64,000 nt of DNA, taken from positions 195,244 to 259,243 of the forward strand of contig JBAZKC010000001.1 of assembly GCA_041651035.1 (NCBI GenBank). Reading direction: 5' to 3'. The notes below the pieces were generated by a model. The model was not told where the DNA came from. It was given only the letters and a program-made list of their open reading frames with translations, and did not search any database. This document shows, piece by piece, positions 4,110 through 11,502 of the stretch (the first letter of the stretch is position 1; every line of letters starts with the position of its first letter). The translations under genes were made by a program, and so were the position numbers. The stretch is from Candidatus Omnitrophota bacterium. Lineage in GTDB: Bacteria > Omnitrophota > Gorgyraeia > Gygaellales > Profunditerraquicolaceae.

Positions 4110-5108
4110 ATGCTTACAAAAGGATACGGGAAACTAAAATCCTCGTTTTTGCCGTTCTTTTTTGTCAGCCTGTTTGTTTCTTTAAACGCTTACGCGGACG
4201 ATACAAAAGCCCTATCCCTAAAAGCCCAGGCCCAGGATCAGGCAATAGAAGCAGCGCAGGAAGAATTCGACCCTTCAGCCGATGATTACCGGCAAAGATT
4301 AAGAAGAACAGTGTCAATGCCGGAAGAATATTTCCCTAACGAAATAGATTATTACATGCGGTATGTACCTTCGCGGGGAGCAAGTTCGCAATCAGGCAGC
4401 GTAGCAATAACTGATTCGGGAGCGGAATATAGCTATGAGCTCAAGGCCTTTGGGAAGCTTCCGGTCCAGTTTGGCGTAAGCACCGAGTATATAGGGGTAA
4501 AAAACAGCACTGCTGTCCAGCTTCCGGCCTATTTAACTTCTACGTCCTTTGGCGTAGAAACCACCCTGCCTTTCTTTGGAGTCGATAAAACTTATTTTAC
4601 TCTAGCCCTTGCTCCAACAATATCCACTGATAACTGGAATTTCCGTTCTTCGGCTTTCAGCCTGCTTCAACGCTATTTTCTGATACATCAGCCGAACGAA
4701 AAGTGGACTTTTATCTGTGGGGCGGCGGTATGGCCGGGTTACGAAGACGAGGTCCTGCCGATAGTAGGATTTATTTATAAACCAAATGATAAATGGACTT
4801 TTAACATTATACCAAAGGGGCCGGAAATTTCTTACGCCATGACCGAAAAACTTACGGTTTTCGGAGAAGGGGATATGTCCGGATATGAATTTGTAGTTAC
4901 TCAAGACGATCACAAGAATGTCAGGCTTGAATATAATGAAATACACGCAGGCGGCGGCCTCAGGTATAAGCCTAACAAAAATGTCAATGCCTCCGTTTCA
5001 ATAGGAGGCATGTTTAACCGTTCCCTGAAATACCGCCCAGACAGCCTGGGTAAGGTCGTGATCAAAGACGGTTTATATAGCGCATTCAGGCTGGAACTTT
5101 ATTTCTAG
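4110..5108 (+). CDS. secreted outer-membrane beta-barrel-like protein of unknown function
   Basis: N-terminal signal peptide; C-terminal ...FRLELYF ending in Phe (OMP beta-signal). Confidence 0.4.
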   Translation: MLTKGYGKLKSSFLPFFFVSLFVSLNAYADDTKALSLKAQAQDQAIEAAQEEFDPSADDYRQRLRRTVSMPEEYFPNEIDYYMRYVPSRGASSQSGSVAITDSGAEYSYELKAFGKLPVQFGVSTEYIGVKNSTAVQLPAYLTSTSFGVETTLPFFGVDKTYFTLALAPTISTDNWNFRSSAFSLLQRYFLIHQPNEKWTFICGAAVWPGYEDEVLPIVGFIYKPNDKWTFNIIPKGPEISYAMTEKLTVFGEGDMSGYEFVVTQDDHKNVRLEYNEIHAGGGLRYKPNKNVNASVSIGGMFNRSLKYRPDSLGKVVIKDGLYSAFRLELYF

Positions 5109-5118
5109 TATTATTATT

Positions 5119-6303
5119 TTAAGCCGCTTCATGCTTGAACCAGGCCCGGGTATTTAAACAAAACCTTACCAGCATCAGCATCACCGGAACTTCTATCAAA
5201 ACCCCGACTACTGTCGCTAAAGCAGCTCCCGAGGAAAGCCCGAAAACAATAGTGGCTGTGGCGATGGCGACTTCAAAATGGTTACTCGCCCCGATCATGG
5301 CAGATGGTGCCGCGTCTTCATAACTAAAATTCAATTTCTTTGCCAGCCAATAAGTGACCCCGAAAATTAAACAGGTCTGGATAAAAAGCGGAATGGCGAT
5401 CCAGAGGATCGTCTGCGGCCGCGAGAGGATCATCTCTCCTTTAAAAGAAAACAAAAGCACGAGCGTAAAAAGCAGCGCGATGATCGAAACCGGAGTCAGA
5501 AGATGAAGAAACTTACGCCTAAACCATTCCTCGCCTTTTCTTGATATTACCAATTCCCGCGAGAAATATCCCGCGACAAGCGGCAAAGCCACATAAACGG
5601 CTATAGATAAAAGCAGCGCCTGCCAGGGGACCGGCATCTTCCCTATCCCTAAAAGAAAACCGCCTAATATCCCGTAGAGAAACAACATGGATAAGGAATT
5701 AATGGCTACCATAACCAGAGTATGGCCGTCATTGCCTTTTGATAAAAATCCCCACACTAAAACCATGGCTGTGCAAGGAGCGATACCAAGCAGGATACAA
5801 CCGGCAAAATAACTCCGCCACAACGGGACCGAAAGCATCCTCATCCCTTCGTGCATAACTACAGTTCCTGCTCCATGGATAGACCCCAGAGACCAATCGG
5901 CACCCGGAGGTAATTTAACAAAATCAATCGCGTTATTCCCAATCAAGCCTTTAAACAAAACGCCCAGGAATAGATACGCGATGGCGTACATCGTAAAAGG
6001 TTTGATCGCCCAATTCACAAAAAGGGTAAGACCAACCGGCTTAGGAGATTTGCCCGCCTTAATCACTTCGGTAAAATCTATCTTGACCATGATGGGATAC
6101 ATCATAAAAAACAAGCAGATTGCTATCGGTATGGAAATAACCGGAGCTCCGTTTATATTAACAGACATACTATCAAGGAACTTGGCCGCCTGCGGAGCAA
6201 TTTTACCAAGGATAATGCCTGAAGCGATACATATAAAAACCCACAATGTCAGGTATTTTTCAAAAAAGCCCAGATTTCTTTCTTCGCGGACGGTTTTCTC
6301 CAT
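5119..6303 (-). CDS. acr3: arsenite efflux transporter, ACR3 family
   Basis: 394 aa, ~10 TM, ACR3-like segments incl. [13 protein letters not shown]. Confidence 0.85.
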
Positions 6304-6347
6304 ATACGCCTCCTCAGGAAATTATGTCTTTATTTATAAGATTCTTT

Positions 6348-7037
6348 TTAGAAAAGCGTTAAAATATAAATACCTACGTAATATACACCCGCCAGAACAA
6401 AAATAATCCCGGTAATCTTTCGAGTATAGTATTCAAGCCGCCTGATCCTATGAAACCAATGGCTAAAGGATGTCACGCCCAAAGCGATGGCAACAGCAAA
6501 TACAAGAACCGGTAGCCCGGTGCCAATTCCGTAAATAAATGGCAGGACAATACCACTTTTACTGTTAATCGCTAAAGGAATAAGGCTCCCAAAGAATAAC
6601 GCTGCCGAAATTGGGCAAAACGCCAGAGCAAAAATAAAACCAAGCAAAAAAGCACCTGGCGCGCCGGATTCTGCAAGCTTATTATGATGCTTTTGTGAAA
6701 GCGAGAGTCCCGGCAAACGAATAGTAATTATCTCAAGTAATATGAGCCCAGTAAAAATTAACAGCGGGCCCAAAGCTTTGCTCATATATTTCTGTAAGAA
6801 CTGCGCAACCTGAGGAACGCTTAAAAGAGAACTGATTATAATCCATCCTAAAATTGCATAAGAAACCATCCGCCCTAGCGTATACGCTAATCCTGAAACA
6901 AACACAAGCGCCGGATGGGTAATTTTCTTTGACAAAAAGGAAACGGCAGCCACGTTGCTGGCCAAAGGGCACGGGCTAATGGATGTCAGAATCCCCAGCC
7001 ACAATGCTGACGCAAAACCTATCCATATCTCTGTCAT
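6348..7037 (-). CDS. CcdA/DsbD-transmembrane-domain family thiol-disulfide transporter
   Basis: 229 aa, 6 TM, SPCP motif in TM1 as in CcdA; overlaps next gene (ATGA-type overlap at 7034-7037). Confidence 0.55.
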   Translation of the reverse strand: MTEIWIGFASALWLGILTSISPCPLASNVAAVSFLSKKITHPALVFVSGLAYTLGRMVSYAILGWIIISSLLSVPQVAQFLQKYMSKALGPLLIFTGLILLEIITIRLPGLSLSQKHHNKLAESGAPGAFLLGFIFALAFCPISAALFFGSLIPLAINSKSGIVLPFIYGIGTGLPVLVFAVAIALGVTSFSHWFHRIRRLEYYTRKITGIIFVLAGVYYVGIYILTLF

Positions 7038-7460
7038 TGAGCTTCCTTCAATAAATCAGCAACCCCGCTCTTTACATAATCAATAAATCTCTGCTTATTG
7101 CCAACATACTCCCAAATCTTATCAAGATTTATCCATTTTGTTTCTTTACCATCCTTGATCAATGATAAAATAAGTGACTTTGTGTAAAGCTGGTAATCCT
7201 TTGTATAATGTTGGTTGCCTTTGTCTTCCACATTAATAACTTTAAACTCCAGCTTTCCGGACGCAAGCGCATCTTTGAAATTAGCTTCTATCGCTTCTCT
7301 TGAATACTGCTCCAGTTTATGACAGGTAGTACAGCGAAATGTTCCGTGAAAATAATACGCCCTGACCTTGCTGTTTAATAGCTCTTCCGCGGCAAAAGAA
7401 GAATCTGTGCTAATACTAGCCAGTACAACAACCAGAAGAATGAGAAGTATTCTTTTCAGC
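7034..7460 (-). CDS. periplasmic thioredoxin-fold CxxC protein (signal peptide, FRCTTCHK); start non-canonical (CUG after AAGGAGG) or misplaced
   Basis: ORF continues upstream of the first ATG (7231) with a clear signal peptide KRILLILLVVVLASIS; no ATG/GTG/TTG in frame; SD AAGGAGG 5 nt before CUG at 7460. Confidence 0.4.
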
Positions 7461-7703
7461 TTTACCTCCTTGGTTGACCAAAATATCTCTTATTTCATCC
7501 TTACTTAACACCTTACCAACCGATACAACATTGCCGTCAACCGCCAATGCCGGAGTCATCATCACACCATAATCAGTAATTTTGCCTATATCTGTCACTT
7601 TGGAAATCTCAGCTACTATATTGAGCTCTTTTACTGCAGCTTCTGCATTAGCAGCTAGCTGTTTGCATTTTGGACAACCTGCCCCTAAAATCTCGATTCT
7701 CAT
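7416..7703 (-). CDS. small thioredoxin-family protein (redox-active disulfide protein 2 type, GCPKC), extra C-terminal CC pair
   Basis: 95 aa, MRIEILGAGCPKCKQL..., typical of trx-like genes in ars clusters. Confidence 0.7.
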   Translation of the reverse strand: MRIEILGAGCPKCKQLAANAEAAVKELNIVAEISKVTDIGKITDYGVMMTPALAVDGNVVSVGKVLSKDEIRDILVNQGGKAEKNTSHSSGCCTG

Positions 7704-7719
7704 TTTCTCCTCCGTTATT

Positions 7720-8502
7720 TTATCTTTTTACGGCAGAAACTTTTATGCTGGCTACCGCACCCTCAACACCCTTAAGATTCTCAAACATAGCGTCCACAGG
7801 ATAATCAGAATGGCTGACTACCTTTACATTTTGAAAACCCGCCATTTTAATAAACTTTAAATATTCCTCTTTCTTAATGGCTCCGGCAAGGCAACCCACA
7901 TATGCCTCAACCGACTCTTTAATCGCATCCGGCAAATCTTTGACAAGCACTAAATCTGAAACCATCAGTCTGCCGCCAAGTTTTAATACTCTAAAAGCTT
8001 CCTTAAATACCTGTTCTTTATCAGGCGAAAGATTAATAACGCAATTTGATATAATTACATCTACCGAGCTATTATCCACCGGTAACTTTTCGATCTCTCC
8101 AAATCTGAATTCTACATTCGTATAATTGCCTTTTAGGGCAATCGCTTGGGCTTTTTCAATCATCTCCGGCGTCATATCAACGCCAATAACGCGGCCGGTC
8201 TTCCCGACTTTAGGAGAAGCGAGAAAAGCATCAAACCCCGCACCGCTTCCCAAATCAAGCACAACCTCTCCTTCTTTAAGCGAAGCTATGGCAACCGGAT
8301 TGCCGCACCCAAAACCCAAATTCGCGCCTTCAGGAACAGCGTTCATTTCCGCATCGCTATAGCCAACTACCTTGCTTATAGTTTTCGCCTGGTCTCTGCC
8401 TCCACAACAAGAATTTGTAGAACAACAGGAAGTATTCTGCGTAACCGCCTTGGCATAACCCTCTCTAACAATCTTCTTTATATCGCTTGTTTTTCTTTTC
8501 AT
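7720..8502 (-). CDS. arsM: arsenite S-adenosylmethionine methyltransferase
   Basis: SAM motif VLDLGSGAG, conserved Cys clusters (CCSTNSCCGG, GCGNP, SNCVINL) typical of ArsM. Confidence 0.85.
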   Translation of the reverse strand: MKRKTSDIKKIVREGYAKAVTQNTSCCSTNSCCGGRDQAKTISKVVGYSDAEMNAVPEGANLGFGCGNPVAIASLKEGEVVLDLGSGAGFDAFLASPKVGKTGRVIGVDMTPEMIEKAQAIALKGNYTNVEFRFGEIEKLPVDNSSVDVIISNCVINLSPDKEQVFKEAFRVLKLGGRLMVSDLVLVKDLPDAIKESVEAYVGCLAGAIKKEEYLKFIKMAGFQNVKVVSHSDYPVDAMFENLKGVEGAVASIKVSAVKR

Positions 8503-8516
8503 ACTGTACTCCGATC

Positions 8517-9692
8517 TTATTTAACTATGAATCCGAAAATCATTCCGCTTATAGTTGCCATAACCACAACCAAAGCCACATATACTGCGGTTTTCTTAGT
8601 TCCTATAATGCTTCGTAAAACAAGCATGCTTGGCAAGCTCAAGGCAGGCCCAGCTAAAAGTAACGCCAAAGCGGGTCCTTTGCCCATACCAGATCCAATC
8701 AATCCTTGTAAAATAGGAACCTCTGTAAGCGTGGCAAAATACATAAATGCCGCGACAATAGATGAAAAGAAATTTGCCCATAATGAATTACCGCCGACAA
8801 GCGCTGCGACAAAACGCGACGGGATCACTCCTTCGTGGCCTACCCTTCCTAAAAGGAACCCTGATACAAGTACCCCACCCAAAAGAAGTGGAAGAATTTG
8901 AAGAGCAAAACCCCATGTCGCATGAGTCCACTCCTTTAATTCATTCTTCTTGAACCACTTCAAAAGCATGACAACTAAGCTCACAAGAGATAATCCTGCA
9001 ATCCACCACTTATACTGATAAATTATTGACCAAATCCCATGATCACCTTCAAGCGGCTTGCCCCAGTTAGCAAATACGAGGAACACTACCATCGAAGCGA
9101 AATAAAGAACCGTTTTACCTAAAGAGCGGGTTTCTTTTACTTCGCCTACATTAAAATCTCCGTTTGCATGACGCGCCCTCTCTTCTTTTAAGAATATCAA
9201 ATGCATTAATAGGCCAATAACTACGCTGAATATCACAGCACCGATTGCCCTTGCCAGCCCTAACTGCCAGCCAAGGATACGCGCTGTCAGAATGATAGCT
9301 AAAACATTTATGGCAGGTCCGGAATAAAGAAACGCGATTGCAGGACCAAGGCCAGCGCCTCTTTTATATATACCGGAGAACAAAGGTAAAACCGTACACG
9401 AACAAACCGCCAAGATGGCCCCGGATACTGAAGCAACGCTGTAGGAAAGAAATTTATTCGCTTTAGCTCCAAAATACCTCAGGACAGACGCTTGACTAAC
9501 AAAAACCGATATCGCCCCTGCGATAAAAAATGCCGGGACAAGGCATAAAAGCACATGCTCCCGCGCGTACCATTTTACAAGAGCCAACGCCTCAAATATT
9601 GCGTTACTGAATCGTAAGTTTTCTACCGGTAGATAAAAACATGCTAAAAATGCCGCTACTATATAAATAAACTTTTTCCAGTCTTTCATTAC
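8517..9692 (-). CDS. arsP: ArsP-like permease (DUF318 family, organoarsenical efflux candidate)
   Basis: ~8 TM; AVCSCTVLP motif resembling ArsP Cys motif; start chosen at ATG 9692 overlapping upstream stop (alternative ATG at 9719). Confidence 0.55.
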   Translation of the reverse strand, partial: VMKDWKKFIYIVAAFLACFYLPVENLRFSNAIFEALALVKWYAREHVLLCLVPAFFIAGAISVFVSQASVLRYFGAKANKFLSYSVASVSGAILAVCSCTVLPLFSGIYKRGAGLGPAIAFLYSGPAINVLAIILTARILGWQLGLARAIGAVIFSVVIGLLMHLIFLKEERARHANGDFNVGEVKETRSLGKTVLYFASMVVFLVFANWGKPLEGDHGIWSIIYQYKWWIAGLSLVSLVVMLLKWFKKNELKEWTHATWGFALQILPLLLGGVLVSGFLLGRVGHEGVIPSRFVAALVGGNSLWANFFSSIVAAFMYFATLTEVPILQGLIGSGMGKGPALALLLAGPALSLPSMLVLRSIIGTKKTAVYVALVVVMATISGMIFGFIVK

Positions 9693-9991
9693 TTGCTCCT
9701 TCCTCCAATTTTGCAACAACCGCCCTCGATCCTGATCGCCTTAATGTTTACTAAACCATCGGCAACCTTGTTTTGGGCAGAGGTTAAAATCCTTGAAAAT
9801 GTCGGCCGTGAAATCTTCATGATCTTTGCGGCTTCAACTTGCTTTAACCCTTCAAGACAGGCAAGGCGCACAGCCTCGAATTCATCCAGAGTTAAACAAA
9901 CCACTTCTAATTTATTCAGAGGTTTGCATAACGGCTTAAAACACCGCTCACCCGGAACGCATTTTACCCACCTTGTCTTTTTTGGCCTCAT
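9689..9991 (-). CDS. DUF134 (UPF0251) family DNA-binding protein, first gene of ars operon, Cys-rich
   Basis: FKP..LEVVCLTLDEFEAVRLACLEGL..AAKIMKISRPTFSRIL..GLVNIKAIRIEGG matches DUF134 consensus; extra Cys at N-term and GGCC at C-term. Confidence 0.65.
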   Translation of the reverse strand: MRPKKTRWVKCVPGERCFKPLCKPLNKLEVVCLTLDEFEAVRLACLEGLKQVEAAKIMKISRPTFSRILTSAQNKVADGLVNIKAIRIEGGCCKIGGRSK

Positions 9992-10002
9992 TTTACCTTA
10001 AG

Positions 10003-10028
10003 TATTGTTATGAACATATGTTCATAAC
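10003..10028. promoter_or_regulatory. perfect 26-bp palindrome TTGTTATGAACATATGTTCATAACAA (candidate operator)
   Basis: read directly; sits immediately downstream of the putative -10 of the ars operon promoter, 12 bp upstream of the DUF134 start codon. Confidence 0.5.
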
Positions 10029-10029
10029 A

Positions 10030-10057
10030 ATTTTAACAGATTTATTCCGCTTGTCAA
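10030..10057 (-). promoter_or_regulatory. candidate sigma70 promoter of ars operon (TTGACA-16-TAAAAT on minus strand)
   Basis: minus-strand TTGACA (10052-10057) and TAAAAT (10030-10035). Confidence 0.4.
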
Positions 10058-10076
10058 ATAATTTTTATAAAATAAA

Positions 10077-10108
10077 GGGGACGGTTCTGTTTTAACAGAA
10101 CCGTCCCC
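10077..10108. terminator. GC-rich hairpin GGGGACGGTTCTG-ttttaa-CAGAACCGTCCCC with flanking A/T runs (bidirectional terminator; repeat family A)
   Basis: 13-bp perfect stem, T-run downstream and A-run upstream. Confidence 0.6.
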
Positions 10109-10128
10109 TTGTTTTCCCTCTGATATGC

Positions 10129-11502
10129 CTAGGGGGATTTATGGGGGGTTTGTTCAATATTTATATAATCCTTAAAACCTATGCCCTCGCCCAACTCCTG
10201 CTTTACTACCCTTATCCTGTCCGGGACGTAGGGGTGGGTTTTATAATATGACCTTGGCATCAAGGGCCTGCGCCTGTTTATATCCTGCAGCTTAGTCAGG
10301 AAGTTAATCATACCGCGGGGGTCGTATCCGGCTGCTTTTAAATACCGCACACTTAACTGGTCGGCAAGCAATTCATCTTCCCGGGAATACCCTAGTAATA
10401 ATTCGGTAAAGGCGGTGTCCGCGGCAACGCCCGTTCCCGAGGATGCAGATGTTACGGCAACCAGTATCCTTAATACAGAATACCCTTCTATCGCCTGAAG
10501 TTTCTTGATGCTGTGGCGGGCGACAATATGGCCAACTTCATGGGCCAGGACACCTGCTAACTCGTTATCATCAGCCGCCTTTTCCACCAAGCCCCTGTTT
10601 ACATAAATAAAACCTCCGGGCAGAGACACGGCGTTTACTTCATCTTCATCCAGCACCATAAAATGATAAACTATTTCTTTCCTGTCACAGACAGCGGCTA
10701 TTTTCTTACCAATGTCCTCCACGCGTTTCTGCATAAGAGGATCGACAGCCGGCTTATATTCCTTTTCTACCTGCCGCGCGATAGCCTGGCCTATCTGCAC
10801 CTCTTTATCAGTACTGTAATAGAACGTCTCTTGCTGGCCGGTAACAATATTGTATTCAGTAGAACAACCAGAGAGAAAAACAGTAGATAGCAGGCAACAG
10901 GTAGCAGTTAGAAAGAAAAGAAATAATTTTACGTCCAACTCCTTAAGCATAAGATAAAGCTTTCTCAAGGGCAATCCCACGACGTTATAAAAACAGCCTT
11001 CGATCCTCCTGATAAAAAGAGCTCCCTGGCCCTGGATATCAAAACTGCCCGCTTTATCCAAAGGCGAAACGCGGTTAAAATAACCGTCTATTTCTTTATC
11101 GGACAATTTATCCATATAAACCTTGGTCTTTTCATAATCAACTAAGGCCCTGTTTTTATCCTTATCAATTACGGCGATACCGGTATAGAGCCACTGCGGC
11201 TTGCTGGACAACTTCTTTAACATAGCCCTGGCATGTTTTAAATCCCCGGGTTTACCGAATATCTTTTTATCCTGCACCACAATGGTATCCGCGGCGATAA
11301 TAATGCCTTGGCTGACTTTACAGGCAGCCTGCCGCGCCTTACGGATAGCGTTGCCTTTAACCATCTTTGCGTAAGACAAGCTTCCAGGTTTCCTCTGTTC
11401 TTTTATCCTGACGGGCAAAACCTTAAAACGCAATCCCAGTATTTCCAGAAGTTTCTTTCTAGCTTTAGATCCGGAGGCTAAATATATTTGTCTCATACCC
11501 AT
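10129..11502 (-). CDS. continuous ORF: N-terminal Maf nucleotide pyrophosphatase domain fused in frame to lipoprotein-type M48 zinc metallopeptidase (HEVGH)
   Basis: aa 1-~185 Maf-like (ASGSKARKKLLEILGL...); then MLKELDVKLFLFFLTATCCLLSTVFLSGCS (lipobox-like) and HEVGHIVARH M48 motif; no stop between. Confidence 0.65.
   Translation of the reverse strand: MGMRQIYLASGSKARKKLLEILGLRFKVLPVRIKEQRKPGSLSYAKMVKGNAIRKARQAACKVSQGIIIAADTIVVQDKKIFGKPGDLKHARAMLKKLSSKPQWLYTGIAVIDKDKNRALVDYEKTKVYMDKLSDKEIDGYFNRVSPLDKAGSFDIQGQGALFIRRIEGCFYNVVGLPLRKLYLMLKELDVKLFLFFLTATCCLLSTVFLSGCSTEYNIVTGQQETFYYSTDKEVQIGQAIARQVEKEYKPAVDPLMQKRVEDIGKKIAAVCDRKEIVYHFMVLDEDEVNAVSLPGGFIYVNRGLVEKAADDNELAGVLAHEVGHIVARHSIKKLQAIEGYSVLRILVAVTSASSGTGVAADTAFTELLLGYSREDELLADQLSVRYLKAAGYDPRGMINFLTKLQDINRRRPLMPRSYYKTHPYVPDRIRVVKQELGEGIGFKDYINIEQTPHKSP

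Follow-up and report, generated by a model that had tools for sequence, protein, structure and literature searches.

A DUF134 protein as candidate repressor of an ars operon

The 64,000 nt stretch of contig JBAZKC010000001.1 analysed here (the window), from a Candidatus Omnitrophota bacterium, carries a seven-gene ars operon whose first gene encodes a 100-amino-acid protein of the DUF134/UPF0251 family. We consider it probable, on comparative grounds, that this protein is a dedicated, autoregulated repressor of the operon that responds to arsenicals. Comparison of related loci shows, at the level of sequence, linkage to ars genes, conservation of a palindromic operator, co-variation of the operator with the recognition helix of the protein, and clade-specific cysteines tied to ars cargo. 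From these patterns we infer that the protein represses the operon instead of activating it and that it binds as a dimer, as well as its effector and the cysteines that ligate this effector; arsenic responsiveness is suggested by the gene context and the cysteine pattern. The original prediction for this DNA had proposed that the DUF134 protein acts on the palindrome as an autoregulated repressor in place of ArsR, a proposal to which the linkage, operator conservation and co-variation described below lend support.

Seven open reading frames (ORFs) follow one another head to tail on the minus strand between positions 5119 and 9991, and stop/start overlaps at TAATG and ATGA junctions bear out the tight packing first noted for them. 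An ACR3 pump accompanied by ArsM, ArsE, ArsF and ArsG, closely spaced behind a single strong promoter, identifies the cluster as an ars operon, and all five of these products score above the curated NCBIfam cut-offs. The DUF134 gene itself (9689-9991, minus strand) matches PF02001 with E=3.7e-20 and 72.7 bits against a gathering cut-off of 27, the match spanning residues 2-93. Against the NCBIfam model PRK04217 the protein scores 55.7 bits, below the cut-off of 115, and is therefore not an equivalog of that model; the NCBIfam search returned no named model for the ars-linked DUF134 clade.

A database search at E<=1e-5 gave 2,296 relatives of the protein, the named ones nearly all from Candidatus Omnitrophota metagenome-assembled genomes (MAGs). 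A scan of species-representative genomes matched 224 relatives, 80 loci of which were analysed together with further metagenome contigs. It had been suggested that other genomes be searched for DUF134 genes beside arsM or acr3, and in the 80 loci such genes were found to lead ars operons. Wherever a related locus includes enough downstream DNA, DUF134 opens an ars operon; behind it, in the same orientation, come variable sets of ArsP, ArsM, ArsE, ArsF, ArsG and ACR3, and in two loci (L052 and L063) ACR3 alone. The genes that flank these operons are unrelated between loci. Inserts within the operons of the relatives include 11 LMWPc arsenate reductases, eight DGC-domain proteins, five CDF proteins, five PF04060 FeS proteins and three Usp proteins. 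The CDF insert, a 296-amino-acid cation-efflux protein with PF01545 and ZT_dimer domains, is encoded between ArsP and ArsM at L019, L022, L044, L049 and L074.

The absence of an ArsR-family gene, claimed at the outset, held up within the 64-kb window by both Pfam and tblastn. Pfam analysis of 19 small ORFs in the window gave no HTH_5 or HTH_20 match, and a tblastn search (E<=1) with three ArsR/SmtB/CadC seeds gave no match in the window or among the first 88 loci. On some Omnitrophota contigs a second DUF134 paralog, not of the five-cysteine type, lies within a few kb of the ars-linked gene, at L062 (from position 11246) and L074 (from position 6); they are 43% and 63% identical, and the conserved 20-mer described below is not found upstream of them.

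A conserved palindrome abuts the -10 box

The DUF134 gene is separated from the preceding gene by 137 nt. This region opens with the intrinsic terminator hairpin of that gene (10075-10110, minus strand; a 16-bp stem followed by a T run), which insulates the ars promoter from upstream transcription. Downstream of it are a -35 box, TTGACA (10052-10057, minus strand), and an extended -10 box, TGtTAAAAT (10030-10038, minus strand, with TAAAAT at 10035-10030). TTGAC is kept across 81 unique orthologous promoters and TGnTAAA is conserved in the orthologs. The original prediction had named TTGACA-16-TAAAAT as the promoter, and with 11 of 12 consensus positions and the upstream TG it indeed outscores every other sigma-70-like match in the 5.4 kb scanned (4900-10300).

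A perfect 28-nt palindrome, ATTGTTATGAACATATGTTCATAACAAT (10004-10031), with the core TTATGAACAnnTGTTCATAA, is the putative DUF134 operator. It overlaps the last 2 nt of the -10 box and the expected transcription start, and is present in one copy in the window, with no occurrence in 100 shuffles. The 26-mer reported earlier is perfect and adjacent to the promoter, as stated, although its coordinates of 10003-10028 need correction to 10005-10030 and the full palindrome extends to 28 nt.

The core was found in all 88 upstream regions examined, 62 times exactly, 23 times with one mismatch and three times with two, so that the absence of the palindrome from orthologous clusters, which had been named as grounds for abandoning the idea, was not observed. 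Its position is constant, directly after the -10 box and 10-22 nt ahead of the start codon. Over the 81 unique sequences, the 20-mer comes close to the maximal information content; TTGAC and TGnTAAA reach moderate values, and the spacer and the downstream part carry almost none. Each locus has one copy of the operator (1.06 Mb of related loci). A conserved palindrome that overlaps the core promoter and the expected +1 position of the regulator's own gene is the arrangement of an autoregulated repressor and its operator.

The sole additional matches in this 1.06 Mb are copies with three mismatches, right after -10-like boxes at L028 (8900-8919 and 9625-9644) and at L053. A TetR-family gene and a TolC/HlyD-type efflux operon, directly downstream of the ars operon, lie behind these copies, which could be either extra DUF134 targets or TetR's own sites.

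A perfect inverted repeat between a promoter and a start codon is capable of forming a hairpin, and could in principle act in the RNA as a 5' leader hairpin or attenuator. We assign this a negligible probability. The -10 box ends inside the left arm and transcription is expected to start about 7 nt past it, still within that arm, so most of the left arm would not be transcribed and a full RNA hairpin could not form. Moreover, an Rfam scan of 4900-10400 gave no family at threshold (there was one sub-threshold match of 27 bits, on the opposite strand), and the symmetric sequence changes described in the next section track the helix of the protein. The palindrome is best read as a DNA site rather than an RNA element.

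The position of the site also bears on the sign of regulation. Activation, or a dual role, might be considered for DUF134, because its helix-turn-helix (HTH) is like sigma-70 region 4 and like LuxR/ECF-type domains, many of which activate. However, the site lies downstream of the -10 box, abutting it, and over the expected +1, which is a position typical of repression, and a promoter so close to consensus (11 of 12 plus TG) should work without an activator. An activating or dual role is thus very unlikely.

The half-site co-varies with the recognition helix

A more distant clade of DUF134 proteins, 53-67% identical and found in MAGs labelled Pseudomonadota, FCPU426 and Omnitrophota, has the same cysteine pattern and also heads ars operons, with a different palindrome at the same position. 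The operators of this second clade have the form ATGCATATATATGCAT and occupy the same place as the site of the first clade.

We compared recognition helices with half-sites across loci that had been gathered by protein similarity, not by motif; the counts and statistics take the loci regardless of shared ancestry. The half-site GAACA accompanies the helix SRPT in 138 of 152 arms, GCACA accompanies SRST in 6 of 10 and HRST in 7 of 8, and HQST goes with GCATA (7 of 8 arms). It can be seen that the change of R62 to Q tracks a change of C to T, and that of P63 to S tracks A to C. Arginine usually contacts G and glutamine A, with which the pairing of R62-to-Q and C-to-T agrees.

Independently of this co-variation, the spread of the exact 20-mer also points to DUF134 as the protein that binds it. 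The 20-mer was found at at least 121 sites in metagenome contigs. Among the sites listed, 50 lie directly before a five-cysteine DUF134 gene, 28 before genes of other DUF134 subfamilies (mostly with an SRPT-type helix), two before fragments, nine at contig ends and 32 elsewhere, so that, contig ends aside, a DUF134-family gene follows directly on 80 of 112 sites. A set of 33 sites (32 loci) lacks a close DUF134 gene, including four with a distant non-ars DUF134 gene; the ORFs that flank these sites include seven NifX-like and two DUF5320 proteins, which are usual partners of DUF134, as well as two LexA-like and two TetR genes, and a longer inverted repeat recurs among them.

These distributions bear on whether the palindrome might instead be bound by an unlinked regulator such as LexA, with DUF134 serving some other role. 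The core GAACATATGTTC is identical in form to the Gram-positive type of LexA SOS box (GAAC-N4-GTTC), and at L140 (11648-11667) and L176 (6007-6026) a LexA-like gene (Peptidase_S24) begins about 47 nt downstream of the 20-mer. Two more copies of the 20-mer sit beside TetR genes, and the weaker copies at L028 and L053 precede a TetR gene and an efflux operon. Nevertheless, the DUF134 operator differs from the SOS box in having a 10-nt half-site, conserved beyond GAAC-N4-GTTC, in being tied to a DUF134 gene, as the 80 of 112 sites indicate, and in co-varying with the recognition helix of that gene's product. The operators of the second clade are unlike an SOS box and yet keep their position. LexA and RecA genes were sought for promoter comparison in the Omnitrophota DNA examined (the window and the loci), and none was present. 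Since the palindrome also stands before 28 non-ars DUF134 genes, it is predicted to be the operator that much of the DUF134 family recognises, which argues against LexA or another unlinked factor; we regard binding by such a factor as extremely unlikely.

The DUF134 family at large shares its domain and HTH with the ars-linked protein, and many of its SRPT-type members stand behind the same palindrome. Its members occur alone, or fused or adjacent to NifB/NifX-like, DUF5320 and zinc-ribbon modules. Unlike the ars-linked clade they lack C17, C22, C92 and C93 and are not found beside ars genes.

Further observations concern DNA around copies of the 20-mer and other DUF134 genes. The L140 and L176 copies are in AT-rich contigs, and look like Cheo-type SOS boxes that resemble the DUF134 operator. 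A 34-nt palindrome, ggtcagtTTATGAACATATGTTCATAAactgacc, occurs at L099, L101, L112, L170 (two copies), L181 and L206 with no DUF134 gene nearby; these metagenome contigs have a GC content of about 0.49, and the element resembles a dispersed repeat. DUF134 proteins are also encoded, next to NifB/NifX genes, on about 200 sequenced plasmids (Klebsiella, Citrobacter, Escherichia and Clostridium). One of them, the E. coli IncF plasmid NZ_CP147085.1 (L223), has a DUF134 gene with the helix GVSRQTLANI followed by a NifB/NifX-family gene, and upstream of it, at 4930-4990, the repeats TTGGCATATGCCA (related to the palindrome) and TGGCGTATGCCAA are arranged around a -10-like TATAAA box. This DUF134-NifX pair could be a culturable model for the family.

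Conserved cysteines distinguish the ars-linked clade

The N- and C-terminal cysteines to which the original prediction drew attention are both present, as KCVPGERCFKPLC at residues 10-22 and GGCC at residues 90-93. In close relatives C11, C17, C22, C92 and C93 are invariant. Across the two ars-linked clades, down to about 45% identity, no exchange occurs at C17 or C93, and conservation of C11, C22 and C92 is 90% or higher. The corresponding columns of 150 diverse DUF134 representatives hold mostly F/S, Y, G (132 of 150), N/P/A and V/Y/F, and because other residues stand there the five cysteines are evidently not needed for the fold.

The cysteine pattern follows the cargo. Among metagenome loci with at least 1.2 kb of downstream DNA, ars genes lie downstream of five-cysteine DUF134 genes in 29 of 29 cases, against 2 of 13 for other DUF134 types. 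The two exceptions belong to the ars clade themselves, one frameshifted (L104) and one with the CC pair changed to CF (L150), and excluding them leaves 0 of 11. A subfamily-specific set of cysteines that includes a vicinal pair and co-occurs with ars cargo is the pattern of MarR_ars-type regulators, in a protein that is not MarR by sequence.

An AlphaFold model built from a 60-sequence alignment has a mean predicted local distance difference test (pLDDT) score of 75.5 and a confident three-helix HTH at residues 31-80. Its helices at 35-46, 51-57 and 62-83, with pLDDT above 90, form a core like sigma-70 region 4, and the recognition helix ISRPTFSRI corresponds to residues 60-68. Short strands are modelled at 9-24 and 93-95, through which the N-terminal cysteines and C92/C93 might come to share a single sheet. 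Foldseek matched the model best to ECF sigma region 4, PhyR and the DeoR DNA-binding domain, with every E value above 0.03, and a sequence search of the PDB returned no DUF134 structure.

Several points weigh against a repressor dedicated to arsenic. The clustering of thiols is not established by the model, because the cysteine-bearing termini have low pLDDT (53-64). Few independent lineages lie behind the co-variation, and the SRST loci share a related promoter. The search for ArsR covered 64 kb of the source genome. The five conserved cysteines exceed the requirement of an S3 arsenic site, and binding of Zn or of an Fe-S cluster is possible. Five operons encode a CDF cation exporter, some second-clade operons (L093) are without ACR3 and ArsM, and the top NCBIfam models for the permease encoded by the second gene are Cu/Zn exporters, with scores below cut-off, so that the range of inducers may exceed arsenic.

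Some of these points favour a different role for the cysteines, namely that DUF134 autoregulates through the palindrome and that its thiols sense thiol or persulfide redox stress or soft metals (such as Cd, Zn or Cu), or hold a structural Zn or an Fe-S cluster. The surplus of cysteines, the CDF exporters, the L093-type operon and the sub-cut-off kinship of the permease to Cu/Zn exporters all fit such a role, as do the richness of the operons in thioredoxin and DsbD-type proteins and the DGC-domain and PF04060 'FeS' inserts in some of them. Set against this, most of the identified cargo consists of ACR3, ArsM, ArsEFG and LMWPc arsenate reductases, the smallest operons pair DUF134 with ACR3 alone, and the five-cysteine signature accompanies ars cargo but no other DUF134 cargo. 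A vicinal cysteine pair is geometrically awkward for ligation of Zn or Fe-S. Such a pair is, by contrast, typical of arsenical sites (PMC11868830; bioRxiv 10.1101/2021.08.12.456183). On balance we think such a role unlikely, though it is the strongest of the alternatives considered.

A model for arsenical-responsive repression, and comparison with known regulators

If DUF134 is an arsenical-responsive repressor, a dimer would bind the palindrome as TTATGAACA-nn-TGTTCATAA through the sigma-70-region-4-like HTH and its helix ISRPTFSRI. The bound protein would block RNA polymerase, because its site adjoins the -10 box and extends over the expected transcription start. As(III), or possibly methyl- or aryl-As(III), would be bound by thiolates drawn from three cysteines of the N-terminal hairpin region (C11, C17 and C22) and from the vicinal pair of the C-terminal strand (C92-C93). 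Once bound, the arsenical would alter the conformation of the protein and release the operator, and the full transcript encoding DUF134, ArsP, ArsM, ArsE, ArsF, ArsG and ACR3 would then be made.

Sensing of As(III) in known regulators relies on three cysteines, two of which are often vicinal, as in AfArsR (C95/C96/C102) and CgArsR (C15/C16/C55), and the cysteine sites of ArsR proteins arose independently at different positions (PMC11868830). With the ArsR/SmtB regulators (R773 ArsR, AfArsR, CgArsR and ArArsR) the DUF134 system shares its layout, with a small (here candidate) regulator encoded by the first gene and an operator at its own promoter. The scaffolds differ. ArsR/SmtB proteins are winged helices, whereas DUF134 has a three-helix HTH of the sigma-70 region 4 type (PF02001), with no sequence similarity to them by tblastn and no Pfam match to the winged-helix domains HTH_5 and HTH_20. 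ArsR/SmtB proteins sense through three thiolates, whereas DUF134 has five conserved cysteines and would sense through some of them. The DUF134 site, unlike those of ArsR/SmtB, is a 20-nt perfect palindrome immediately after the -10 box.

MarR_ars appears to be the best functional analogue of the ars-linked DUF134 proteins. It has the cysteines C36/C37/C157, and AdMarR_ars of Achromobacter is a repressor that is released by As(III) and Sb(III) (bioRxiv 10.1101/2021.08.12.456183). In both cases a subfamily of a non-ArsR family has been recruited to ars genes and is defined by cysteines that include a vicinal pair. The two differ in that MarR_ars has the MarR winged-helix fold, other hosts and arsV as cargo, and in that its role was proven by experiment whereas that of DUF134 is argued by comparison.

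The existence of ars operons, of cysteine-based arsenic repressors and of recruitment from outside the ArsR family (MarR_ars) is already known. A literature search found no publication on the function of DUF134/UPF0251/COG1342/PF02001 or on a link between DUF134 and arsenic, in keeping with the earlier statement that a regulatory role is not established for the family, and nothing relevant on Omnitrophota and arsenic or on novel regulators. A broader proposal, for and against which we see the chances as even, is that DUF134 is an unrecognised family of one-component transcription factors with a sigma-region-4-like HTH and a shared, CATATG-centred palindromic operator at their own promoters, and that its five-cysteine branch ('DUF134_ars') is a further, independently evolved sensor of trivalent arsenicals, which took the place of ArsR throughout Omnitrophota and in some other uncultured phyla.

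Were these readings true, they would provide a first function and DNA motif for DUF134/UPF0251, a family present in bacteria, archaea and about 200 enterobacterial and clostridial plasmids. They would add a scaffold other than the winged helix to the arsenic sensors (ArsR types 1-4 and MarR_ars), and would strengthen the picture of As(III) sites evolving repeatedly by the sprinkling of cysteines onto DNA-binding dimers. Control of ars genes would be explained in Omnitrophota, an abundant uncultured phylum of groundwater and sediment, where surveys for arsR only would miss the regulator. A base code at positions 62 and 63 (R with C:G, Q with T:A, P/S with A/C) would make operator specificity predictable and open to re-engineering, and a 100-amino-acid protein with a 20-bp operator might serve as a compact part for arsenic biosensors.

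Organisation of the operon and neighbouring sequences

All of the genes behind DUF134 are on the minus strand. The ArsP_1-family permease (8517-9689; 390 amino acids; PF03773, 264 bits) begins with an ATG at 9689 that overlaps the DUF134 stop codon as TAATG. It is followed after 14 nt by ArsM, the arsenite S-adenosylmethionine methyltransferase (7720-8502; NF008823, 352 bits, cut-off 263), and after a further 16-nt gap by an ArsE-type thioredoxin-like protein of the MTH895/ArsE family (7416-7703; TIGR00412, 104 bits, cut-off 62). The ArsF-family protein, with a signal peptide and a CxxC motif (7034-7459; NF040494, 117 bits, cut-off 60), overlaps ArsE by about 44 nt and meets the ArsG-family membrane protein of the DsbD/CcdA superfamily (6348-7037; NF040495, 282 bits, cut-off 200) at an ATGA overlap. 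A 44-nt gap then leads to the ACR3 arsenite efflux transporter (5119-6303; TIGR00832, 381 bits, cut-off 283).

Genes four to six had been described as a periplasmic thiol-disulfide module. The three genes are there, but the module is not new, given that the NCBIfam models identify them as ArsE, ArsF and ArsG. An ArsEFG module was described by Chen, Zhang and Rosen 2019, as cited in PMC9144182. The likeness to the Shewanella putrefaciens system lies in the succession of a thioredoxin-like protein, a signal-peptide CxxC protein and a DsbD-like membrane protein; unlike the known system, the module here is under a DUF134 promoter alongside ArsP, ArsM and ACR3.

ArsF has no ATG, GTG or TTG start before residue 77. 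Its start is most likely the CTG at 7459 (7459-7457), 5 nt after AGGAGG, at the place where most orthologs have TTG. At L041 and L072 a canonical ArsF start is likewise missing at the aligned position. The ArsE-type thioredoxin has a C-terminal extension that ends in HSSGCCTG (tail ...SSGCCTG) and a weak ArsD match (PF06953, E=0.002). Vicinal cysteine pairs are present in three products of the operon, namely DUF134 (C92-C93), the N-terminus of ArsM (CCSTNSCC) and the ArsE-type thioredoxin (HSSGCCTG). Beyond the terminator, positions 10129-11502 of the minus strand form a single ORF of 457 amino acids which, judged by eye, appears to combine a Maf-like N-terminal half with a lipoprotein-type signal and an HExxH peptidase-like C-terminal half.

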